Notes under the pieces: generated by a model
Database searches by the model: none
What the model was told of the DNA's origin: nothing
What the model saw: only the letters and a program-made list of their open reading frames with translations
Program-made: the position numbers and the translations under genes
Source: Candidatus Kuenenia stuttgartensis
GTDB lineage: Bacteria > Planctomycetota > GCA-002687715 > CAIWVZ01
Reading direction: 5' to 3'
Length of the DNA: 64,000 nt
NCBI GenBank assembly: GCA_945860915.1
Contig: CAMARR010000003.1
Span: forward strand, 58,535-122,534
Part shown: in pieces, positions 41,378 through 52,673 of the stretch
Layout: each line of letters opens with the position of its first letter
How positions within the stretch are numbered: the stretch's first letter is position 1

Positions 41378-41929
41378 ATGACTGCCCGCAACGAACGCCT
41401 TGTTTGGGTCGACCTCGAGATGACCGGACTTGATCCTCTGCGCTGCAAGATCATTCAGATCGCAACCCTTGTGACCGACAGTGATCTCAACTTGGTTGCC
41501 GAAGGGCCCAACATTGTGTGTCATGCGACTGAAGAGGAGCTCCTCTCGCTGTCGGACTGGTCCCGCGACATGTTCACGAAATCCAAACTCTTGGATCAGG
41601 TTCGGGCTTCGGTGACATCGCGCTCAGAGGCTGAATCGCAGACCGTCGAGTTCCTGAAGCAACATGTTGCACCTGGCTCATCGCCGCTCTGCGGCAATTC
41701 CATTTGGAACGACCGCCAATTCCTGTGGCACGGGATGCGTTCCGTGCACGACTTCGTGCATTACCGAAACATCGATGTTTCTTCGTTCAAAGAGGTACTC
41801 CGGCGTTGGCACCCGACCCGCTACCAGCCGCCATCCAAAAAGAACCTTCACGATGCGATGGCTGACATACACGAGTCCGTCGCTGAACTCCGCTACTATC
41901 GCGATGCCTTCATCGGCCCTAAGGGTTGA
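41378..41929 (+). CDS. orn: Oligoribonuclease
   Basis: LVWVDLEMTGL, PLCGNSI, HYRNIDVSS, H-x-A-x2-DI-x-ES-x2-EL-x-YY. Confidence 0.95.
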   Translation: MTARNERLVWVDLEMTGLDPLRCKIIQIATLVTDSDLNLVAEGPNIVCHATEEELLSLSDWSRDMFTKSKLLDQVRASVTSRSEAESQTVEFLKQHVAPGSSPLCGNSIWNDRQFLWHGMRSVHDFVHYRNIDVSSFKEVLRRWHPTRYQPPSKKNLHDAMADIHESVAELRYYRDAFIGPKG

Positions 41930-42509
41930 ACCGCCGGTACTCAAACAAGTTGGCAAGTGGGGCGGATGAATATCCCGCGACTTCGCCCAGACTACGGGCC
42001 GTGTCCGCAGTCGTCAGAAACAACAGGATTCCCTGATTCCTCTGCGCGACTTTCTCGAGCACTTCGTCCGCGATCGATCCGCATTCGGCCGAAGGCGCCG
42101 TCCTGCCGAGATCCCTTCCAAGAATCGCTGCTCCCTGGGCCTCGACGGCCAATGCCGCGCAGCCGAGTCCCATAAACCCCAATTCGACATCTGTCCCGCC
42201 GACCTGAATCGTCTCAGGCCATGAAACGATCGCGATAGACCTTTCAGCAGAACGACCAAGTGTGATCAATTCGCCAATGAATGTCGGGCCGCCGCCGTCG
42301 GCCGTGAAGCTCGCGGTGGCACGACGCAACTCACCGAGGTTCGGGGACGAGAGCCAGTCGTAGAGGGCCTCTCCCGCATAGGCAACGCCCTCTGTAGACG
42401 CTTTCGCATCTCGCATCCGAAAGAGCGTGGCACCTGATTCCAACTTAAGGAACAGGCGCTTCACTCCTTCACTGAAGTAGCCCGGGTGATAATGAAGTTC
42501 GAATGCCAT
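41919..42509 (-). CDS. Hypothetical protein
   Basis: 196-aa ORF 3 nt downstream of the YqgE gene on the same strand; no motif recognised. Confidence 0.55.
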   Translation of the reverse strand: MAFELHYHPGYFSEGVKRLFLKLESGATLFRMRDAKASTEGVAYAGEALYDWLSSPNLGELRRATASFTADGGGPTFIGELITLGRSAERSIAIVSWPETIQVGGTDVELGFMGLGCAALAVEAQGAAILGRDLGRTAPSAECGSIADEVLEKVAQRNQGILLFLTTADTARSLGEVAGYSSAPLANLFEYRRFNP

Positions 42510-42512
42510 GAA

Positions 42513-43082
42513 TCAGTTGGATCGGAAACCAGACAGCGAATTCGGCGGCAGTGGGAACGGCAACTCGGCTCTGGCCATCGCGTCGTCCCAGAGATCCTCT
42601 GCCGGTGTTCCGAGCAACGTCTCGGTCTCAAGGTCGACAACGTCCCATGATCCCTCGTTGATTTCGTCTTCAAGTTGGCCCTTGGACCACCCTGCGTAGC
42701 CGCGCATAAATCGAAAAGAACTTGGAGCAGGGTCTCGAGCCGACGCGTGCGCCACGTTTGTGAGGAGCTGGAGATCGCCTCCAAGCCACAGGCCGTCGCG
42801 AATGAGTGACCCAGACGAATCGAGATCTCCGCGATTATGGACCACCCAGGCAACCTCCGGCTGAACTGGGCCTGCGATCCACACGACGTCGTGTCGAAAA
42901 TTGAGCCCCTTCATCGAACCGACCAATTCGCCTATTCGAAGCGGCGTCGGTTTGTTCATTACCAAGCCCGTTGCTCCACGCGATGAGCTGTAATCGATCA
43001 ACACGATGACGGATCGAGCAAACACCGGCCCGCTTACGGGTTGGTGCGCGACAAGAGAAACACCCTTGCGAAGACCCTTCAT
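42513..43082 (-). CDS. YqgE/AlgH family protein
   Basis: FARSVI, GLVMNKP, GPVQ, GYAGWSKGQLEDEI...W. Confidence 0.9.
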   Translation of the reverse strand: MKGLRKGVSLVAHQPVSGPVFARSVIVLIDYSSSRGATGLVMNKPTPLRIGELVGSMKGLNFRHDVVWIAGPVQPEVAWVVHNRGDLDSSGSLIRDGLWLGGDLQLLTNVAHASARDPAPSSFRFMRGYAGWSKGQLEDEINEGSWDVVDLETETLLGTPAEDLWDDAMARAELPFPLPPNSLSGFRSN

Positions 43083-43801
43083 GGAGAGACTCTACCGCGA
43101 AATCCATCGGACGCAGATGCGTGCCATGCCGTGGTCCACGCGGCGTGGATGCGCTCGGCAATCTCATTTGAAGTTAGGCCTGCGACACCAAACGGTTCGA
43201 GGAAGTCGATTCTAAGGTCGCGCCGCCACGTGGGCGGGCCATAGCGAAGCAACACCGGCCAGACTTCGACAGACACTCCGCGCGCGGAAGCAGCCACAGC
43301 TGACTCGATTTCATGCGTCCCTCGAATTGGTCGCACGTGATCATTGTCGCGCGTCCCCTCGGGAAAGAAAACGAGCGGTTGTCCTCGATCAAGGATCTCG
43401 CGCCGCACGTCATCTGCCTCCGCATTGATCGAAGCCATGACCTGCATGGCTTCATCCTTCGTCAGGCCGCGGCGTTCCTTGAGTCGGAGGATCTCCTTCG
43501 GGCGCATCACAGGGAAACCTCCGCAGACTCGGAGGAGCGGCACGATCCTTCCAAGCACCGCATAGCCGACAAATGAACCCATTTGAAAGTTGGATCGAAG
43601 CCCGAGCAACGCGTGTACCTGCCACGACATAGCGGGGATATCCCACCCTGATCCATGTTTCGCGGCAACGAGCACAGCACCAGTCGGTCGACGACCGTGC
43701 GAAACGACCGTCACACGATGGCGAAGGCGAAGCAACCAGGAGGACACTAGATTCGTGGGGTGCCACAGCCAGGGGAGAATTCGGATCTTGGAGTCGGACA
43801 T
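43079..43801 (-). CDS. 1-acyl-sn-glycerol-3-phosphate acyltransferase-like protein
   Basis: H-x4-D (HGSGWD), GGFPV-x-R, FFPEGTR. Confidence 0.8.
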   Translation of the reverse strand: MSDSKIRILPWLWHPTNLVSSWLLRLRHRVTVVSHGRRPTGAVLVAAKHGSGWDIPAMSWQVHALLGLRSNFQMGSFVGYAVLGRIVPLLRVCGGFPVMRPKEILRLKERRGLTKDEAMQVMASINAEADDVRREILDRGQPLVFFPEGTRDNDHVRPIRGTHEIESAVAASARGVSVEVWPVLLRYGPPTWRRDLRIDFLEPFGVAGLTSNEIAERIHAAWTTAWHASASDGFRGRVSP

Positions 43802-43839
43802 CGGAGATGAATGCTAGCGAAGACTCATGCAACGCGCGG

Positions 43840-44346
43840 TCAGCCATCAAAGAGCTTGGCGCAGCAGACCTTGTACTTCTTGCCCGACCCACAAAAACAC
43901 GGGTCGTTCCGTCCGAGCTTAGTGCCAGGGCGTTTGAACGGGACTTGCGGAGCATCACTGCGACGTCGCCCGCGCGTCGGGTCGGCGCACGCGGTCTGGA
44001 AGGCCGACCGTGCGGCTCCGACAGCCATGACGATCTCGAATGGACTGACGCCCGGCTGCTGCGCGATTGAAAAAAGCAGAAACTCTTCGAGAAGGTCGGG
44101 GACATCATCAAGCCAAGCCTCGGACCCACCCACACGTGCGGGTAGATGGCTTGTCAGCATCTCGCGCACGCGCTCGCCGTCGAGATCGCGTGGCGTCACC
44201 GCAACATCTTCTGAACACACTGCGACCATGACTTCTAGAATCGGCGCAAGGGAAGCACCCAAGCGCTCCGTCGCACGACGACCGGCGTCTCCGTCACGAA
44301 ATGACGCGGCGAGGAGTCGCCAGTAATCCACGAGACCGTCCGTCAT
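43840..44346 (-). CDS. SEC-C motif protein
   Basis: C-terminal KLGRNDPCFCGSGKKYKVCC; ATGA overlap with the DUF692 gene. Confidence 0.85.
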   Translation of the reverse strand: MTDGLVDYWRLLAASFRDGDAGRRATERLGASLAPILEVMVAVCSEDVAVTPRDLDGERVREMLTSHLPARVGGSEAWLDDVPDLLEEFLLFSIAQQPGVSPFEIVMAVGAARSAFQTACADPTRGRRRSDAPQVPFKRPGTKLGRNDPCFCGSGKKYKVCCAKLFDG

Positions 44347-46124
44347 GACGCGGAGTCACCCGCGAGCAACACGCCATCGCGCACCAAACTTGCCGAAAGT
44401 TCGCGCACTTCGGCGACGTCTACCTCAAAGTCGCGGGCGATCGCGAGAAGATCCTCTTCCGCAAGCGGAGAAATCGCCGCCGCACGCAGCAGCGATGCTG
44501 TCCCTGGATCCAGTATTTCTGCGGCTCCCGTCGGGACTTTGAATGCGTCGATGCAGGCCCCCGGAGACAAAAGGATGAACTCATCTTCGTCGCCAAGCTC
44601 GGGTCGCGGCAAGCCATTGAGCTTGCCGTTTCTGAGCGCCGCCAAGACAGCGAGCCATCCATCGAGTGTGCCTTCGGGACACGCGACGACCGCGACGGCC
44701 CCCGAGACCCCGAGCGTTCCCTTCGACGGCCGCGGCCCCGGCGATGTACGCCGAACACTGACAAGCGCTTGCTCGAGATAAGCCACGCTCTTTAAGAATC
44801 GATCGTCGCGCGTCTTCACTCGTTCGACCGCATAGGAAGCGAAACCGATGGGAAGCCTCCCTTGTGACGCAACCGTGTTGTGAAAATGGTCCGTTCGAAC
44901 AAACTCCGCGACGAATCCAGGGTCCGCTTGATGATCCATCGCAAGTGCGACCGTTGCCGAACACTCGAGACTGGCGTTCCCCAACACTTGCGCCGCACGA
45001 CGACCACCGTGATCAGCAGTGACACCCTCGATTGGCGCTGCGATCAGCAGATCACGCGCAATGGGTTCGAGGCCGTCCCCCTGTCTCGAAACCGAATCAC
45101 CCGCCCGCCACGCCCTTGCAAGGCCAACGTCAAGCTCACAACGGAAGAGAAACCGCTGGAGCGGCATCAGAGCGTTCGGTGCGAGTGTTGGTGTGGGGTC
45201 TTCTGAGCGAACCAGCTGCGTCGATGCAGCACGTGCATGGGGCTGACGCGTAGGCGCGGAGGCATTCCAAGCATTTACCACGCGTTGGAAAAGCGGAACA
45301 ACTTGCTGGATCGGATTGCGTTCGCACTCGACAACCACCGCCCTCAGATTATTCGCGCGGCCCATCACGAAGTCCAGCATGTCCCACAACTCGGGGAGGG
45401 GCTCCACTCCGTGGTCATCATCAACGAAGATCTTCCCGGCGTGACGGAAGGGTGAACCTCCGGCAACATGGATTTCAACCACCCTCCACCAAGGGAAGTC
45501 GGTGAAGCCGTCGAGTGGCGCATGTCCCGTCACTCGCTGGTAAACGGCGAGATGCGCGAGGTCGATGAGAATCGCCGAATCCGCGTGATCCGCAACACGG
45601 GCCCAATAGTCGAGCAGGTGAAGGCGCCCGAGGTAGACATGCGCAGGAGGGTTTTCAGGAAGCACCTCGAATCCAGTGGCTTCGCGCAGACGCACGACGG
45701 ACTCGGCCATCAGGCGAGCAGATGCGGGCTCGAGAATCGGTGGCTGAAGAAGCCCATGGCCGCGATCTCTTGCGCCCGCATGCCAGAGTCCGGCGTCGCC
45801 GCAAAGCCAAACCGCATTAGCCTGCCGGGCGAGTGCCGCCGTTGAGTTCATCCAGTCGTTCGTCAGACTCGATGGGTCTTCGAGATTCGCGTCAAGGAAG
45901 TGATAGGTCGTCGGTGCGCCCGTCGAGATCCAAGCCTGCGCCGTGGCGTCCATGCCGCGATCGAGATCGGCTCCGATCTCCAGGAACCTAGCAAACTCTC
46001 CGTGCGAGCTGCGCAACTCGAGCGGATCGACGCCCGACCGACTCGCGCCAAACTCAGTCGAGATGCCTACGCCGAGCTCGGGAAGCCGCGCAATGCGATC
46101 TGCAAAGGAAGACGCGTGAGACAT
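44343..46124 (-). CDS. DUF692/MNIO-family multinuclear non-heme iron enzyme fused to a C-terminal partner-like domain
   Basis: LP-x-LGVG, FLEI, H (YHFL), LPENPP, IDLAH, EIHVAGG, DDH, VECE in the N-terminal ~285 aa; ~290-aa helical/wHTH-like C-terminal part. Confidence 0.78.
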   Translation of the reverse strand: MSHASSFADRIARLPELGVGISTEFGASRSGVDPLELRSSHGEFARFLEIGADLDRGMDATAQAWISTGAPTTYHFLDANLEDPSSLTNDWMNSTAALARQANAVWLCGDAGLWHAGARDRGHGLLQPPILEPASARLMAESVVRLREATGFEVLPENPPAHVYLGRLHLLDYWARVADHADSAILIDLAHLAVYQRVTGHAPLDGFTDFPWWRVVEIHVAGGSPFRHAGKIFVDDDHGVEPLPELWDMLDFVMGRANNLRAVVVECERNPIQQVVPLFQRVVNAWNASAPTRQPHARAASTQLVRSEDPTPTLAPNALMPLQRFLFRCELDVGLARAWRAGDSVSRQGDGLEPIARDLLIAAPIEGVTADHGGRRAAQVLGNASLECSATVALAMDHQADPGFVAEFVRTDHFHNTVASQGRLPIGFASYAVERVKTRDDRFLKSVAYLEQALVSVRRTSPGPRPSKGTLGVSGAVAVVACPEGTLDGWLAVLAALRNGKLNGLPRPELGDEDEFILLSPGACIDAFKVPTGAAEILDPGTASLLRAAAISPLAEEDLLAIARDFEVDVAEVRELSASLVRDGVLLAGDSAS

Positions 46125-46133
46125 GATGTCGAC

Positions 46134-47474
46134 TTATGTCAGAGATTCTGTGGCGACACCCATGAGATGCGCCATCCAACGATCAACCATATCGCGCCGT
46201 CGCCCCTCAACCATGATGCGAAGCAGAGGCTCGGTCCCCGACCATCGGATGAGGACACGTCCCTCACTGCCCATTTCCTGCTCCGCTGCCGCGATGGCCT
46301 CGGGCAATCCTGCGATTGCTGCGATGGGAACCTTGGCTTTCGCGTGAATATTCTTAAGCACCTGAGGGAAGGTCTCCATTTCACGCGCGAGCTCGGCCAG
46401 CGCCATGTCACGGCGCGTCATCACCTCTAGAACACGAAGGGCCGCATAAAGTCCGTCGCCCGACCAGCGGGCGCCTTCGCGAAAAATGATGTGCCCCGAC
46501 TGCTCGCCACCGAGAACGGCTCCCATCTCGTCCATCTTTTGAGACACAAAGCGATCACCTACCGGCGTGATCTCAAGCTTGATGCCATCGTTCTTTACGA
46601 AGTGGTGAAGACCTAGGTTTGACATCACCGTTGTCACAAGCAAACGGTCGACGAGTTCACCTCGCGCTGCGAGATCCCGAGCAAGGATGCCCATGATGGC
46701 GTCGCCATCGCGCAGCTTGCCATCTTCGTCCAACATCAAGACTCGATCAGCGTCTCCATCAAGTGCAATCGCAATCGCCCCGCGATGCCGTCTGACCAGT
46801 GGCGCCATCGCTTCAACCGCGACGACTCCCGCGTTGTCGTTGATGTTGTGTCCTGTCGGCTCCGCGTTCACAACGACGACGGACGCACCCAGCGCATTCA
46901 GGAGCTCCGGTCCGATGGAAGACGCGGCGCCGTGCGCACAGTCGAGAATCAACGTGCGACCTACGAGGGACAGCTTCGTTAGCCGTTGACGCATAGCTGC
47001 GACGTAGCGATGCGATGCGCCTTCATCCTTGCTCCGGAGCGCCCGAGGCGCCGCGACGATGCCGGGGTCCTGATCAATGAGTGTCTCAATCCGGATCTCA
47101 TCCGCGTCGGGCAATTTGCGGCCGTCACGTCCAAAGAACTTGATGCCATTGTCCGGCGCAGGATTGTGTGACGCCGAAACTACAATGGCGAGATCGAAGC
47201 CCTCTTCCCTCGCGATCCACTGCACGGCAGGCGTCGTGAGAATCCCACCGTCGGACACGGCAACTCCCGCCCCAAGGAATCCAGACGCTAGGGCATCGGT
47301 CATCCAGGGGCCCGACGTGCGTGTGTCGCGACCAATCAGAATGCGGCGTGAGCCACCCATTGACGCCACGTAGGCACCAGCAGCACGGCCATAGGCCTCG
47401 ACACGTTCGCGTGTGAGAGCCCCAACGCCCGCGAGACCTCGAATGCCATCGGTTCCGAAATACTTGCGACTCAA
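46134..47474 (-). CDS. glmM: Phosphoglucosamine mutase
   Basis: KYFGTDGIRG, GRDTRTSG, SASHNP, DGDADR, GGEQSGH, R-x-SGTEP. Confidence 0.95.
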   Translation of the reverse strand: MSRKYFGTDGIRGLAGVGALTRERVEAYGRAAGAYVASMGGSRRILIGRDTRTSGPWMTDALASGFLGAGVAVSDGGILTTPAVQWIAREEGFDLAIVVSASHNPAPDNGIKFFGRDGRKLPDADEIRIETLIDQDPGIVAAPRALRSKDEGASHRYVAAMRQRLTKLSLVGRTLILDCAHGAASSIGPELLNALGASVVVVNAEPTGHNINDNAGVVAVEAMAPLVRRHRGAIAIALDGDADRVLMLDEDGKLRDGDAIMGILARDLAARGELVDRLLVTTVMSNLGLHHFVKNDGIKLEITPVGDRFVSQKMDEMGAVLGGEQSGHIIFREGARWSGDGLYAALRVLEVMTRRDMALAELAREMETFPQVLKNIHAKAKVPIAAIAGLPEAIAAAEQEMGSEGRVLIRWSGTEPLLRIMVEGRRRDMVDRWMAHLMGVATESLT

Positions 47475-47483
47475 CTCGCCCCC

Positions 47484-48629
47484 CTAGTTCGATGAACGAA
47501 TCACGGTGACTTCCACGGGACTTGGCTCGACACTCTGCAACTTGAGGCCGGTCGGAATTCTGAAGACCTCCACCGAAACCGACTCGGCGGCAAGCACTCG
47601 GGTTCCTTCTGAGACCGCCGCGCGCGCGACAAGGCGATCGGTGTCGATCTCAGCGCGCAACATTCTACGGAGTTCCTCCAAACGAGAAGGATCGCGCCAT
47701 GCGTCGACGATGGAACGAGCGCCCGACAACCGAACGGTCACGACGGGCCTCTCGCTGTCGAGCGGCTTGGGCAGCACAAATCGCCAGTTCGCTCCCGGTG
47801 ACACGGCCAGACGCAGTGCGACCCGCGGCACCTCAATCGATGCGTCTTCGGCGGGGACGAAACTGACCGTGGCCTCAATCACCTGGCGAGCGTCGAAACG
47901 AATGAACTTCTGACCGAACTCGGGTGGCAACGAGTTGAGGACGGTCTTAAAGTCCGACGTTCGCCCCCCACACGGGATCTGCAGCATCGCCTCCGAAATT
48001 GCACTTGGACCCTCAAGCCAAGACGCCGGACCGAGCACGCGCGCTGTGGGCGGATCAATTGCGACCTTTGCCGTCAGGGTCCCGGCGACGTCGAACGCTT
48101 GACCAATGAGCCTCACTTCTCGGGTTGCCAAGCGATCAAGGATCACCTGCACCGGCGGGAATAACTCCGCCGTGACAGTGCCGAGCCCCGTTTCGACGTC
48201 CTTGCCGTCGATTGCCCGTGGAGTCTCGTTGCCGCGCTCGCCAGGAGCGCGCTGTAGCCACGATTCGCGCAAGGCCACGCTCGCAGACACGCGGCGCGTG
48301 TCCTTGAGGCTACCCGCAAGCCTCTGCGGCCCGCGAATGACTAGCCTCGCGCGCGGTGTGTCAACTCTCCGAACGGCGACGTTCCCTTCCGGAGTCAGCA
48401 GCAATTCGCGACGCAATGCCGATGTCGGGCGACTCGCCGCGGCATCGGCGACCACCACATCGACTTCGCCGTCAAACAGCGTCACCTGCTGTTCGCGGTC
48501 AATGATCGCGATCAGAACGCTCGCGAGAATGATCGCGAGGATCTTTGGGAAAAGGTGGTCCGTGAGGAGCCCGCGGACGAACCCGTGACGTTCGCTCGTA
48601 CGAGTCAAACGTTGATTGCCGGTGCTCAT
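47484..48629 (-). CDS. YbbR/CdaR-like diadenylate cyclase regulator
   Basis: N-terminal TM (KILAIILASVL), repeated P-x3-V-x-GP beta domains, ends VEPSPVEV; lies between cdaA and glmM. Confidence 0.7.
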   Translation of the reverse strand: MSTGNQRLTRTSERHGFVRGLLTDHLFPKILAIILASVLIAIIDREQQVTLFDGEVDVVVADAAASRPTSALRRELLLTPEGNVAVRRVDTPRARLVIRGPQRLAGSLKDTRRVSASVALRESWLQRAPGERGNETPRAIDGKDVETGLGTVTAELFPPVQVILDRLATREVRLIGQAFDVAGTLTAKVAIDPPTARVLGPASWLEGPSAISEAMLQIPCGGRTSDFKTVLNSLPPEFGQKFIRFDARQVIEATVSFVPAEDASIEVPRVALRLAVSPGANWRFVLPKPLDSERPVVTVRLSGARSIVDAWRDPSRLEELRRMLRAEIDTDRLVARAAVSEGTRVLAAESVSVEVFRIPTGLKLQSVEPSPVEVTVIRSSN

Positions 48630-49414
48630 GCCCCCTCCGTCACATCTGTCGCATCTTCGGGAGGCACGGGAAGAAGTAGCACTTCCCTGAGGCGTTCGAG
48701 CGAAACTCCGGTTTCCAACTTACCGCGTCGGGCGACGGAAATACGCTGTGTTTCTTCCGACACCACAATCGCAATCGCATCTGAATCTTCGGTCACTCCG
48801 AGAGCGGCTCGGTGTCGTGTACCAAGGGTTCGAGCCAACGTCGCGTTCTCGGATAACGGCAGCATGCAACCTGCTGCGACAATTCTCTCGCCGCGCAACA
48901 AAAGGGCGCCATCGTGGAGCGGAGAATCCTTGGAGAAAATCGACACGATCAGCGCCGGACCGACCGCCGCGTCAACCCGAACAGCCGCTGGCCCTTCGAT
49001 CAGGCCTCCCAATCCGTCCCCGCCTTCTACAACGATGATCGCGCCAAGCCCCCGCTTGGCGAGTCGGTCGACCGCAGTCACAAGCTCCTCCGTCGCACCT
49101 TTGCTGACGCGAGAAAGCCCGAGAAGGAACTCGGAGTCACCGAGTGAAACCAAGGCTTGCCTCAACTCAGGCTGAAAGACCACGAGAAGCCCGATGACGA
49201 CAAAAGCCATTCCTCGATCAGCGATCCACTGAATACGCTGGAGATCGAGGGCCTTTGCAAGCGAAATGCCGCCGACAAGGAAGACTACGACGACAAAAAT
49301 GAACCCCTTGAGAACTCCTGATCCCCGGGTCTCCTGCAAGAAGCGAATGCAGGCGTAGATGACCATCGACAGGATGAGGATCTCGATCGCCGTCCGAAGC
49401 CAGTCCATGTTCAT
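48626..49414 (-). CDS. cdaA: Diadenylate cyclase CdaA/DacA
   Basis: Three N-terminal TM helices, VVFQPELR, GAIIV, PLHDGA, GTRHRAALG, VSEET. Confidence 0.93.
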   Translation of the reverse strand: MNMDWLRTAIEILILSMVIYACIRFLQETRGSGVLKGFIFVVVVFLVGGISLAKALDLQRIQWIADRGMAFVVIGLLVVFQPELRQALVSLGDSEFLLGLSRVSKGATEELVTAVDRLAKRGLGAIIVVEGGDGLGGLIEGPAAVRVDAAVGPALIVSIFSKDSPLHDGALLLRGERIVAAGCMLPLSENATLARTLGTRHRAALGVTEDSDAIAIVVSEETQRISVARRGKLETGVSLERLREVLLLPVPPEDATDVTEGA

Positions 49415-50271
49415 GGAAGAACTCCGGCTGCGCTCACGGCCTCTGCAACTTTCACGGCGTCGGCGGCGAACCCGACGTGATGAACGCGTACGAGTTCAAC
49501 CGAGGCCTTTGCACATCCAGCCACGACAACCGCAGTCGCTACATCACGATCCTTGGGGTCGGTTCGCCCGGTCAACACACCAAGGAAAGCCTTACGCGAC
49601 GGCCCAACACAAAGCGGGTACCGCCCCATGCGCAGCTGATCAAGTTGCGCGAGCAAGGCTAAATTGTGCTCCGCGGATTTTGCGAAACCGAGCCCGGGAT
49701 CAAGGATGACGCGCCTTGAGTCAATCCCTGCAGACTCTGCCCGGCTCACCGCCAACGCGAGCTCCGCGACGACGTCCGTAACGACAGCGTTGTAGTTCGC
49801 CATCGATTGCATCGTTCTTGGATTTCCACGACGGTGCATGAGGATGACGGCGGCGTCGGTTCTTGCGACCACTTGGGACAACGAGGGATCCTCACTCAAC
49901 CCACTGACGTCGTTGAGGATCGATGCGCCGGCTCGCCACGCTTCATCAAACACGGCAGCCTTGGTTGTGTCGACGCTGATAGGAATGCCGATGCGCTCGA
50001 CGAGTGCGCGCACGACCGGAACAACCCGACGAAGTTCGTGCTCAAGGGAAATCGCGTCCGCCATCGGCCGTGTCGACTCGCCTCCGACATCGAGGACCAA
50101 TGCCCCCGCAGCAACCATGAGCTTCGCCGCGGCAACGACCTCTTCGAGATCAGCATAGGACCCGCCATCGCTGAACGAATCCGGCGTGATGTTGAGAATC
50201 CCCATGATGGCCGTCGGGCCACCCGCATCGAGCACGCGACCACGCCCAAGTGGGAGATCGAATCGACGCAT
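49411..50271 (-). CDS. folP: Dihydropteroate synthase
   Basis: MGILNITPDSFSDGG, DVGGESTRP, SVDT, LNDVSG, DPGLGFAK, SRKAF, VRVH. Confidence 0.95.
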   Translation of the reverse strand: MRRFDLPLGRGRVLDAGGPTAIMGILNITPDSFSDGGSYADLEEVVAAAKLMVAAGALVLDVGGESTRPMADAISLEHELRRVVPVVRALVERIGIPISVDTTKAAVFDEAWRAGASILNDVSGLSEDPSLSQVVARTDAAVILMHRRGNPRTMQSMANYNAVVTDVVAELALAVSRAESAGIDSRRVILDPGLGFAKSAEHNLALLAQLDQLRMGRYPLCVGPSRKAFLGVLTGRTDPKDRDVATAVVVAGCAKASVELVRVHHVGFAADAVKVAEAVSAAGVLP

Positions 50272-50278
50272 GGCGGCT

Positions 50279-50788
50279 TCAGCCGCTCCGGGTCGCGTCG
50301 GCGCGTACGAATGTCGCCTTCTGAAGTTCGAGGACGATGTCCTCGCCGAGCTCACGCATGAGCTTGGCGCGAACGGCCTCAAGATCTTCCCCACGGTCGC
50401 GGATGCCCTCGGCACGTCGCGTCATTTTGAACTGCGAAATCACGCGCCCCGTGGTTCGCTCTGCAAGCACGACTTCAACCTCGGCGATGACACCTTCTTC
50501 AAGTGTCACTTCCTTCCGATCGACGACGAGTGGCGCACGACCAATGCGGAGAATGCGCGTCGAAAGGACGGCCTCGGCGTGCGCTAGGTCACGAACAGTC
50601 ACATCCGTGCGCCGCATTAACTGTCGTGTCACTTCGCGAGTCAGCGAAATCTCATCGCCACGGTAAAACGTGTCGTTGGTGCCCATGCGAACTGCAATGG
50701 TGCTGACACCCTCGGGCATCAGAGAGCCTGTCGAGTAGCCACAGCCGGCGACACAGAGCGCAAGCACGATTCGACGGAATCGGATCAA
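50279..50788 (-). CDS. lptE: LptE family LPS-assembly lipoprotein
   Basis: Lipobox VAGC-GY, size and position directly after bamD. Confidence 0.7.
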   Translation of the reverse strand: MIRFRRIVLALCVAGCGYSTGSLMPEGVSTIAVRMGTNDTFYRGDEISLTREVTRQLMRRTDVTVRDLAHAEAVLSTRILRIGRAPLVVDRKEVTLEEGVIAEVEVVLAERTTGRVISQFKMTRRAEGIRDRGEDLEAVRAKLMRELGEDIVLELQKATFVRADATRSG

Positions 50789-51957
50789 TTCGATCCCCCA
50801 CTAGGTCGGGTGGACGGAAGAGATTCGGACGACGTTTTGGGTTCGATCACCGTCGGACGAGAGTCCGTTGTGGACGCGCGCGAGGCCGGTCCCCGGCCTC
50901 GTGCAACCGCCAATCGCCGCTCTTCGGCTTCAAGTTGCTCTTGAGCAACTTCAGGAACCACGTCAACCAGCGCCGCGATCCGCAGACGCGCTCGGTCTGC
51001 AGCATTCGATTTGGGCCAGTCCGCCACAAGCTTCAAGTAGTAGTAACGGGCACTGTAAGCCTTGCCCATACTCTCATACCAATCGGCGACTTTGTACATG
51101 CGATCGGATTCAATGGACTCGAGCCATTGCAGCATGCGTAACGCATCATCCCGCCATTCGCCTTGTGGGAAATCCTTGATGTAGGTGACGATGCGTTCGC
51201 GCGCATCCGCGTTGATTTTTGGATCGTAGTAGTCGCCCTTGACTCGCCGATAACGGCAGTAGCCCTGGTAGTACCGCGCAGCCGTGTACCACTCGGAGTT
51301 GGTGTAATTCTGTGCGAGGAGATCGAATGCTGGCGTGGCTAACTCCCAGTCTTCGTCTTCCACGAAGTACCTCGCAAGCTGCCACTGTGCATCCGCGGCG
51401 CGGGCGGAATTAGGGTAAGTCGAAACTATCCACTTCATGATCTCGACGCCGCGCCCACGATTCGAGAAGATCCCAAAGAACGATGACATCCGCCCCTCGA
51501 TGTACTCGCGTCCCGATACGTAGGCGTGCTCTTCGATGACCTTAGATCGATCTGAAATGCTGTGGTTGAGAGCATAAGACTTGCATGCCGTGAAGCACCT
51601 GCCGTAGTCGCCGTCGAGGAACGTGGACTCCACCCACAAGTACCGCGAAACCTCGTCGTATTCGGAGGCCGGAAAGTCCTCGACAAACTCCTCGAAAAGG
51701 TCGCCGGCTTCTTCGAAGTCCTTGGCGTCAAACGCGGCCTTGGCTCCATCAAACGCGGCCTTCTGCGCAACACGCTGCTCTGGTGTCACTTCGATGCGAC
51801 CACGACGAAGTACCGCAAGCTTTTCTTTCTCTTCGCGCCCGGGATCGGATCGGAGGAACTCTGGAAGAGACTGATTCGCCTTACGCCCGAGGGCCGAGCA
51901 CCCCGAAAGGACGCCAAGGAGTAGCGCAAGTAGAAGAAGTGAGGATCGAGGGCGCAT
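50785..51957 (-). CDS. bamD: Outer membrane protein assembly factor BamD-like TPR lipoprotein
   Basis: Lipobox LSGC; repeated FPAS/YPNS TPR motifs; YD-x6-A-x5-YI-x2-FP; SARYYY. Confidence 0.75.
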   Translation of the reverse strand: MRPRSSLLLLALLLGVLSGCSALGRKANQSLPEFLRSDPGREEKEKLAVLRRGRIEVTPEQRVAQKAAFDGAKAAFDAKDFEEAGDLFEEFVEDFPASEYDEVSRYLWVESTFLDGDYGRCFTACKSYALNHSISDRSKVIEEHAYVSGREYIEGRMSSFFGIFSNRGRGVEIMKWIVSTYPNSARAADAQWQLARYFVEDEDWELATPAFDLLAQNYTNSEWYTAARYYQGYCRYRRVKGDYYDPKINADARERIVTYIKDFPQGEWRDDALRMLQWLESIESDRMYKVADWYESMGKAYSARYYYLKLVADWPKSNAADRARLRIAALVDVVPEVAQEQLEAEERRLAVARGRGPASRASTTDSRPTVIEPKTSSESLPSTRPSGGSN

Positions 51958-52106
51958 GGGACTCCGGAGGGTCAAGGCGGCTCGCACCCCCCAAAAGTGG
52001 AAGCGATCGAATCACCGTCCCTCAACCGAGATCGATCCTAGGACCGTGGAGGGAGGGGGTCAAGGACGACAAATGACAAGTACCCCCTAACTCGGCTCAC
52101 ACGTGC

Positions 52107-52673
52107 ATGTCAGCTTATCGAGATGAAATTCGAGTCCCGCTCCTTAGTACAATGCTCACGACACGCCAGCGACTCAAAAGCGCCGAACTTAGGAGCCCGC
52201 ACTTGCCCCAAGAGGGATATGAAATCGAACGAAAATTCCTGCTGTCAGGAACTCCGCCGTCGGTCCTAGATTCCCCAAAGCTGGTCGTTAAGCAGGGCTG
52301 GATTCCTGGGAAAAAACTCAAGGAACGACTTCGGATGACGAGCTACGAAGACGGAAGCGCTCGGTACTTTCGCACCGTGAAATCGGGGTCGGGGCTCGTC
52401 AAGATCGAGATCGAAGAGCAGACCAACGCGGAGCTGTTCGACTACCTCTGGCCACTGACCGTCGGACGGCGTGTAACGAAACTGCGTTACTTGGTGCAAG
52501 AGGTCGGGTTTCTCTGGGAAGTCGATGTCTTCACCGACCGCGAACTAGTCCTCGCCGAAGTCGAGTTGCCGACGCCTGAGTCACTTGCCCCCATGCCCGC
52601 CTGGATCCTCCCGTACATGGTCCGTGAAGTCACGGAAGACTCGTCCTACTCCAACTCGTCGCTGGCCTTCTGA
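52107..52673 (+). CDS. CYTH domain protein
   Basis: EIERKFL, RLR, K-x-RY, WEVDVF, LAEVEL, EVT-x4-Y-x-N. True start may be further downstream. Confidence 0.85.
   Translation: MSAYRDEIRVPLLSTMLTTRQRLKSAELRSPHLPQEGYEIERKFLLSGTPPSVLDSPKLVVKQGWIPGKKLKERLRMTSYEDGSARYFRTVKSGSGLVKIEIEEQTNAELFDYLWPLTVGRRVTKLRYLVQEVGFLWEVDVFTDRELVLAEVELPTPESLAPMPAWILPYMVREVTEDSSYSNSSLAF

Follow-up and report, generated by a model that had tools for sequence, protein, structure and literature searches.

The locus

The window analysed here is a 64,000-nt stretch of contig CAMARR010000003.1 from the Candidatus Kuenenia stuttgartensis assembly GCA_945860915.1 (source genome G000, 2.37 Mb, 87% complete), and all positions are given in its numbering. 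Its minus strand carries a tight gene run comprising folP (PF00809), cdaA (PF02457), a gene for a 381-aa protein, glmM (454.5 bits with TIGR01455, cut-off 447.55), the gene for P0001, a 593-aa protein in which an MNIO barrel and an MNIO partner protein are joined in one chain, the gene for P0002, a small SEC-C-tailed protein, and genes for an acyltransferase, an AlgH-like protein (PF02622) and a 196-aa protein without family. A first-pass annotation, made from the letters alone, had placed P0001 9 nt after glmM and its stop in an overlap with the gene of a 168-aa protein; both are as described, like the rest of what it had observed, with 9 nt between the glmM stop TAA and the P0001 ATG, and a 4-nt ATGA shared by the P0001 stop and the P0002 start. 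Promoter-like and terminator-like sites in 41800-52200 were no more frequent than in shuffled sequence. P0001, its parts and its immediate neighbours are as follows:

44343..46124, minus strand: P0001, single-chain MNIO-partner fusion of 593 aa, stop codon included (open reading frame (ORF) list, translation)
45255..46124, minus strand: MNIO/DUF692 TIM barrel, P0001 residues ~1-290, the Pfam part being residues 46-270 at 45315-45989 (PF05114, Foldseek, hhalign)
45180..45254, minus strand: poorly conserved linker, P0001 residues ~291-315 (dip in model confidence; gapped, variable alignment)
44730..45179, minus strand: helical domain of the partner half, P0001 residues ~316-465, DUF2063-like by fold only (C-half model)
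44346..44729, minus strand: RRE-like winged-helix domain, P0001 residues ~466-593 (VIA-align)
43840..44346, minus strand: P0002, 168-aa SEC-C-tailed protein (translation, Pfam)
43858..43911, minus strand: SEC-C motif, P0002 residues 146-163 (PF02810)
46134..47474, minus strand: glmM, directly upstream of P0001 (TIGR01455)
43079..43801, minus strand: acyltransferase gene, directly downstream of the SEC-C gene (PF01553, 33.5 bits against a cut-off of 23)

The 381-aa protein between cdaA and glmM (47484-48629, minus strand) matched no Pfam family at E ≤ 0.001. Its position is kept in the related genomes G001, G002 and G004, at 65-37% identity, and from that position we take it to be, perhaps, the regulator usually sited between cdaA and glmM.

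The two halves of P0001

The N-terminal half of P0001 is an MNIO. The PF05114 profile (MbnB_TglH_ChrH) matched residues 46-270 at 53.2 bits, well over the curated cut-off of 25, as anticipated from the letters, and a genome-wide search of G000 with the same profile gave a single match, of 55.6 bits, at the P0001 site. A full-chain AlphaFold2 model, built with 109 homologues, reached a mean predicted local distance difference test (pLDDT) of 94.2 and a predicted template modelling score (pTM) of 0.92, a value for the whole chain that implies a confidently packed two-domain unit, and the pLDDT of 10-residue blocks falls to 76 and 66 in the linker region. With this model, the top Foldseek match in the PDB was TglH (8hci_B, E 1.3e-10, target template modelling score (TMt) 0.70), together with the DUF692 structure 3BWW (E 4.1e-9, TMt 0.79) and MbnB (7dz9_A, E 7.3e-7, TMt 0.73; MbnB matches overall had E ~1e-6 and TMt 0.73-0.76), and all three outranked endonuclease IV and sugar-isomerase barrels. 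In agreement with these matches, hhalign aligned the profile of the P0001 subfamily with six canonical MNIOs from related genomes over 258 columns (probability 99.3, E 1.7e-20), at an identity of ~26%. P0001 fell far under the cut-offs of the named MNIO subfamilies of NCBIfam (BufB, 46.7 against 310; ApyH, 44.4 against 400; HvfB, 26.3 against 360) and is a member of none of them.

The metal ligands were mapped from two alignments, that of the profile to TglH, MbnB and 3BWW and the hhalign alignment to the six canonical MNIOs. A search of PDB sequences with P0001 as a single sequence returned nothing at E ≤ 1, and one with a profile of the N-terminal 170 residues nothing at E ≤ 10; for this reason, the first two positions of the ligand set come from the hhalign alignment to the canonical MNIOs. 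According to the part of PMC10880893 available to us, TglH binds Fe1 and Fe2 through H71, H107, E151, D184, H216 and E258, and Fe3 through D184, N187, D229 and H231, and its N73 orients the substrate Cys. In P0001, H71 corresponds to H75, E151 to E157, D184 to D188, N187 to H191, H216 to H219, D229 to D236, H231 to H238, and E258 to E266, so that seven of the nine canonical metal ligands are retained (H75, E157, D188, H219, D236, H238 and E266).

Both alignments confirm the altered motifs WLCGDAG and DLAH that had been noticed on first inspection. D188-L-A-H191 aligns with the canonical D-x-x-N, and the His191 that takes the place of Asn can still serve as a ligand. W-L-C108-G109-D110-A111 aligns with the canonical W-L-G-D-H, and here the second canonical His (TglH H107) is lost, the aligned residue being Ala111 or, with a one-residue gap placed otherwise, Asp110; an extra Cys108 stands beside the site of the lost His, and His115 follows it. 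Where TglH has N73, two positions past the first His, P0001 has Leu77, and Asp78 and Asn80 are conserved instead. In the 109 homologues, the seven ligands, C108, G109, D110, A111, H115 and H191 either do not vary or reach a conservation of at least 90%, which argues for a metal site that is working but altered, rather than decayed.

The first-pass annotation had described a fusion of this barrel to ~290 aa ending in a winged-helix-like segment, and models and fold matches bear it out: ~300 residues follow the barrel, with such a segment at their end. A separate model of the C-half (residues 310-593, 47 partner sequences) had a pLDDT of 93.8 and a pTM of 0.89, and at E ≤ 0.001 Foldseek matched it only to TglI (8hi7_A, 2.5e-5; 8hci_A, 1.6e-4) and NGO1945 (3dee, 2.3e-4). 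Realignment of the Foldseek list with VIA-align gave a Z of 14.0 for TglI 8hci_A (252 of 268 residues over model residues 5-281, root-mean-square deviation 5.4) and of 12.4 for the DUF2063 protein NGO1945 3dee (190 of 200 residues, root-mean-square deviation 3.8), values to be read with the caveat that helical proteins can reach a Z of 13-14 by chance; these two matches span nearly the whole C-half, with a Z well over that of the next row (7.8). The RRE domains of MibB (7.8), TbtB (5.8), MadB (5.5), TbiB1 (4.5), McbB (4.2) and PqqD (3.9) aligned with model residues 159-284, MbnC with the C-half at a Z of 4.7-4.8, and the SelB winged helix gave a profile match to the RRE-like domain (E 0.034).

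No DUF2063 Pfam match was obtained at E ≤ 1 for any of the 47 partner sequences, nor for P0001 itself. The available text of PMC12452194 (Antoine et al.) describes "PME-type 2" partners as DUF2063-like by structure and not by Pfam, with ~260-280 residues, a full RRE-type domain and a gene directly after the MNIO gene. Since it has the TglI/NGO1945 fold and no DUF2063 Pfam match, the C-half is a PME-type 2 partner, composed of a helical domain and an RRE-like winged helix, and the MNIO-partner fusion proposed from the letters thus stands. Taken together, P0001 unites a TglH-like and a TglI-like protein in a single polypeptide.

The first ~40 residues of the partner domain (45090-45197, minus strand; P0001 residues ~310-345) contain a conserved Leu-Gln-Arg ... 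Asp-Pro ... Phe motif and weakly resemble RiPP (peptide made by the ribosome and modified after translation) leader-type families. PF14407 ("Frankia_peptide") matched 7 of the 47 partner N-termini (L099, L102, L110, L114, L115, L125 and L133), at best with 25.4 bits against a cut-off of 48, and the 85-residue "nitrile hydratase alpha chain" entry 6lk7_A matched at E 0.019; P0001's own sequence gives no such match.

Distribution, neighbours and the search for a substrate gene

A scan with two peptide patterns from the subfamily found relatives of P0001 in 239 species-representative genomes, one genome being taken per species, and the best 80 of these were retained as loci for comparison. Carriers include metagenome-assembled genomes (MAGs) labelled Myxococcota, Planctomycetota and Deltaproteobacteria, a Candidatus Entotheonella MAG, and the cultured genera Nannocystis, Enhygromyxa and Paraliomyxa. 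The public titles of closely related carrier MAGs (L054-L133) are inconsistent, ranging over Planctomycetota, Myxococcota and Deltaproteobacteria and even Klebsiella, Spirochaetales and Rickettsiales. A word-indexed protein search confined to 326-1038 aa yielded 109 relatives, many of 520-630 aa, and an exhaustive search of 50%-identity representatives yielded 563 matches at E ≤ 1e-3, 236 at 1e-10 and 32 at 1e-30.

The partner, with its helical and RRE-type domains, is encoded after the MNIO or fused to it in 72 of the 80 loci, 61 of them split and 11 fused. Of the 61 split pairs, 58 have the projected partner start between -10 and +11 nt from the MNIO stop; of the eight loci without a partner match, four end at the MNIO gene and four have at least 4.6 kb downstream and no partner. 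Identity to the window protein is 49-67% for the N-half and 18-33% for the partner across these loci. In a quick maximum-likelihood tree of N-halves (79 rows, two of the 80 loci being dropped for an N-half under 250 aa or an internal stop), a clade of fused forms unites the window with L054 and L055 (Shimodaira-Hasegawa-like approximate likelihood ratio test 98) and is nested among split relatives. On this tree the fused state needs six changes, and the well-supported branches alone are compatible with a single origin. Among G000 and 40 related genomes, 13 of 41 had a strong match to the N-half (E ≤ 7e-77); the three genomes of the genus have it fused to the partner and the others have a split form, the partner lying at a contig end in G012 and its end at a contig start in G003. 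The subfamily is thus normally a tightly coupled two-gene pair of MNIO and partner, and the fusion is a lineage-specific event.

Relatives without the subfamily (L015-L021; G008, G014, G016, G018, G022 and G026) carry a canonical MNIO with the full H/H/E/D/N/H/D/H/E set at other loci, and the genome-wide PF05114 search, whose single match was P0001, showed no canonical MNIO in G000.

No adjacent precursor was found. At the locus, the 9-nt spacer and the 4-nt overlap leave no space for a short ORF between glmM, P0001 and P0002, and in the 80 loci no credible conserved family emerged from the ORFs of 20-110 aa situated up to 600 bp from the module; the earlier remark that no short precursor peptide lies nearby holds at both levels. 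Some groups of small ORFs near the module were considered as peptides and rejected, because they are low-complexity matches or real genes read out of frame, rich in Arg, Ser and Pro. A scan of 14 neighbouring proteins showed no TglA-type peptide and no PEARL (LanB-like) domain. Searches of the 87% complete G000 found no match to PF14407, with three control genomes positive; they also found no NHLP-leader match and none to PF04738 or PF14028 (LanB-N, LanB-C), profiles that were silent in the control genomes as well, so that their absence is not established. P0001 therefore lacks the adjacent precursor that defines classical MNIO RiPP clusters.

Nor is there a conserved neighbour family. The ORFs of the 80 loci that measure 70 aa or more and lie up to 5 kb from the module were clustered after filtering on GC3-GC2 (GC content at third and second codon positions); leaving aside the enzyme and its antisense shadow, the commonest family was a cytochrome P450, in 9 of 80 loci and directly upstream in eight. 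The remaining families occur in at most eight loci each and are mutually unrelated; they include PLP (pyridoxal phosphate) enzymes, transketolase-like, MltA, aminotransferase, luciferase-like oxidoreductase, squalene synthase-like, UvrD-like, SLT, radical-SAM (S-adenosylmethionine)/methyltransferase and glutathione S-transferase (GST) proteins.

Two of these arrangements were seen in particular clades. In one (L057, L062, L063, L064, L067, L071, L081 and L084), made up of close relatives, a P450 gene in the ~1.2 kb upstream of the MNIO start, on the same strand, ends ~5-15 nt before the projected start, judged from ORF ends and projected starts; the called P450 ORFs of L062 and L084 run over that start by several bases. 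Still further upstream come one or two genes for PLP enzymes, and the whole looks like an operon. In L058 the P450 gene is downstream on the opposite strand. In Nannocystis (L124:5258-7912; the same stretches in L105, L126 and L129), a 653-aa radical-SAM/methyltransferase fusion and a GST precede the module.

The protein encoded directly downstream of P0001 had been named as the nearest candidate for its substrate. P0002 ends in a SEC-C motif (PF02810, 38.2 bits against 20.4, residues 146-163) whose core is invariant in 27 aligned relatives, the last Cys being His in some distant members, and this Cys-rich tail is the ordinary metal-binding motif of SecA type. Its N-terminal helical domain of ~130 aa belongs to no Pfam family, and only ~26 full-length relatives were found in the protein database. 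The one other SEC-C motif in G000 is at the end of an 893-aa frame, which also matches P0002 residues 118-162 there and which would be SecA, judging by size and motif position only.

A full-length or nearly full-length P0002 orthologue is present in 22 of the 41 genomes, and its gene is beside the enzyme only in f1, the family to which the window belongs. In all five f1 genomes the SEC-C gene is preceded by the enzyme or partner gene, with overlapping genes in G000-G002, and is followed by the acyltransferase gene. Within ~8 kb of the module, a SEC-C-like motif occurs in 3 of 80 loci, all from f1. Elsewhere, enzyme and orthologue lie on separate contigs (G009, G010, G013, G015, G020 and G021), or the orthologue occurs without a strong enzyme match (G007, G008, G014, G016, G017, G018 and G022) or the enzyme without an orthologue (G005 and G019), genomes with only one of the two being 76-92% complete. 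Because f1 is a single lineage, its adjacency is one inherited arrangement and not repeated evidence. Outside f1, then, the SEC-C gene is not a conserved neighbour, an outcome that the first-pass annotation had itself set in advance as speaking against its proposal, and a role of P0002 as dedicated substrate is not supported. Prediction of a complex between P0001 and P0002 gave a score of 0.01 against a mark of 0.32, which, made without controls, counts neither for nor against binding. P0002 is probably a neighbour only, rather than a target.

In the other two f1 genera (G003 and G004), a Cys-free 82-aa ORF lies between the partner and SEC-C genes:

L060:9804-10049, plus strand: 82-aa ORF
L037:679-924, plus strand: 82-aa ORF, 66% identical to the former

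No Pfam family matched this ORF, and neither G000 nor the 79 further loci from the scan that gave L060 showed it; it could be a lineage-specific accessory or a substrate candidate.

A proposed role for P0001 and its relation to known systems

We lean towards reading P0001 as the single-chain MNIO-partner of a conserved orphan subfamily, one that acts on a peptide or protein encoded elsewhere, its placement between glmM and the SEC-C gene reflecting lineage synteny. On this reading, the glmM-P0001-SEC-C order is inherited within one family and is not a functional cluster. The properties that we infer for this enzyme are iron binding, O2 chemistry and the peptide or protein substrate encoded elsewhere. 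Under this proposal, the N-terminal TIM barrel would hold a di- or tri-iron site formed by H75, E157, D188, H191, H219, D236, H238 and E266, with D110, C108 or H115 possibly replacing the lost second His. The barrel would oxidise a residue in the peptide or protein with O2, the helical domain of the C-half would clamp onto the barrel as TglI does on TglH, and the RRE-like winged helix would dock a substrate encoded elsewhere in the genome.

Several points weigh against this proposal. The only pointer to a peptide or protein encoded elsewhere is the RRE-like fold retained in the model. Since the second His ligand is missing and the Cys-orienting Asn is Leu77, chemistry and metal stoichiometry may differ from those of known MNIOs. 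Across the subfamily, N-halves share ~50-65% identity, which is unusually high for a RiPP enzyme and would fit a non-RiPP role as well. All three genomes of the genus preserve the ATGA overlap, so that co-translation with the SEC-C protein is real in this lineage. Finally, the 80 loci were chosen by peptide patterns drawn from the subfamily itself, gene calling in them was crude and GC3-based, and the screen for small ORFs covered 600 bp on each side.

The rebuilt metal site leaves some room, albeit a minor share, for P0001 as the single-chain form of a Myxococcota-wide orphan MNIO with a chemistry new to the family, acting on a conserved cellular protein encoded elsewhere, in a housekeeping-type modification and not one of a RiPP precursor; in that case the SEC-C protein co-translated in f1 could be the target or an accessory metal donor.

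It is rather improbable that P0001 has a non-RiPP role, oxidising a small molecule or non-ribosomal substrate or serving core physiology, with the partner half only a structural subunit. The absence of a precursor in 80 loci, the clade-dependent metabolic or housekeeping neighbours (P450 and PLP enzymes, GST and radical-SAM/methyltransferase, peptidases, glmM), the highly conserved barrel, and the sharing of its fold with sugar isomerases and endonuclease IV would all suit such a role. However, the RRE-like domain of the partner is retained in full, was modelled with confidence and matches peptide-binding RREs, the nearest folds of both halves form a peptide-modifying pair, and the MNIO chemistries in the portions of the literature surveyed all act on peptides or proteins.

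A protein-modification system in which the fusion enzyme acts on P0002, or on the Cys-rich tail of P0002, appears improbable, even if the idea is limited to f1. Besides the ATGA overlap in three genomes and the gene order kept in all five f1 genomes, this idea draws on the available text of PMC12452194, in which many characterised MNIOs act on Cys and Antoine et al. make the case that proteins, and not peptides alone, may be modified by MNIOs. Nevertheless, the adjacency counts as one inherited event and the motif occurs in 3 of 80 loci, the genes are on different contigs in six genomes that hold both, the orthologue stands alone in seven genomes and the enzyme in two, an unrelated 82-aa ORF separates the genes in G003 and G004, and the tail is a PF02810 motif of the generic kind, which stays invariant far outside f1. 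Considered by itself, the coupled translation with a Cys-rich neighbour would have indicated what is probably the wrong substrate.

The missing His and the changed Asn would fit an MNIO-like protein that has lost catalysis and serves in regulation or as a scaffold. PesX, from the nitrilobacillin cluster, is such a case, a pseudo-MNIO in competition for the partner protein (PMC13060819, in the part available). For P0001 this is highly improbable, because conservation of the ligands and of the residues near the changed ones points to selection on the active site, PesX is described in the same text as without iron-binding residues altogether, and G000 has no second MNIO to regulate.

The MNIO family is growing fast, and so far every subfamily added to it has come with peptide chemistry of a new kind. 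One acknowledged blind spot, according to the available text of PMC12452194, is clusters in which no precursor can be recognised. A subfamily that is large (239 genomes) and strongly conserved, with distinctive ligands and never an obvious substrate gene, is therefore a defined target for substrate discovery, and the cultured genera Nannocystis, Enhygromyxa and Paraliomyxa are available as carriers. As a natural single chain, P0001 fixes the enzyme-partner stoichiometry at 1:1 and should suit expression and structural work.

Among known systems, small SEC-C proteins and the metal-binding domain at the C-terminus of SecA are the counterpart of P0002 rather than of P0001. E. coli YecA and YchJ are small proteins with a SEC-C tail; such proteins are the best NCBIfam matches of P0002, and the Atlas has large clusters of SEC-C proteins of ~170 aa. 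Unlike these, P0002 has an N-domain of ~130 aa without a Pfam family and the ~26 full-length relatives mentioned above.

Fusion as such is not new, since a fused extra domain is described for ChrH in the accessible part of PMC13056109. In the available text of PMC12452194 there is no MNIO-partner fusion of the P0001 type and no such ligand pattern, and the literature covered in full text (figures, some supplements and subscription papers fell outside its scope) held no description of the subfamily, of its ligand pattern or of a link between MNIOs and SEC-C. The subfamily, its ligand pattern and its consistent lack of a substrate gene thus seem undescribed so far.

MbnB/MbnC, of methanobactin, resembles P0001 in its barrel (TMt 0.73-0.76), and MbnC is a weak match to the C-half; in contrast to MbnBC, P0001 has no MbnA-like peptide, and its partner half is much nearer TglI and NGO1945 than MbnC. 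BufB/BufC and HvfB/HvfC (MNIO with a DUF2063 "PME-type 1" partner; NGO1945, 3DEE) have the same architecture as P0001, a barrel with a helical-RRE partner, and BufB and HvfB are its weak best NCBIfam matches. P0001 differs from them in having neither an adjacent Cys-rich precursor with a Sec signal nor a DUF2063 Pfam match, and canonical members of the Buf/Hvf type are found at other loci in relatives of the window organism, at ~26% identity to the subfamily.

Plesiocystis is a genus of the Nannocystaceae, and the subfamily of P0001 reaches cultured members of that family. One of the PME-type 2 examples is a 276-residue protein of Plesiocystis pacifica (Antoine et al. 2025).

The closest relation is with TglH/TglI of the 3-thiaglutamate pathway of Pseudomonas syringae (PDB 8HCI, 8HI7). 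P0001 differs from this pair in being one chain instead of two, at an identity of 11-17%, in having no His counterpart of TglH H107, with N187 replaced by His191 and N73 by Leu77, and in having no TglA-like peptide or LanB-like PEARL gene among the neighbouring proteins. Still, TglH/TglI is the best structural match for both halves of P0001; the partner half is without the DUF2063 Pfam signature, as are PME-type 2 partners, and the equivalents of TglH H71, E151, D184, H216, D229, H231 and E258 are all kept.

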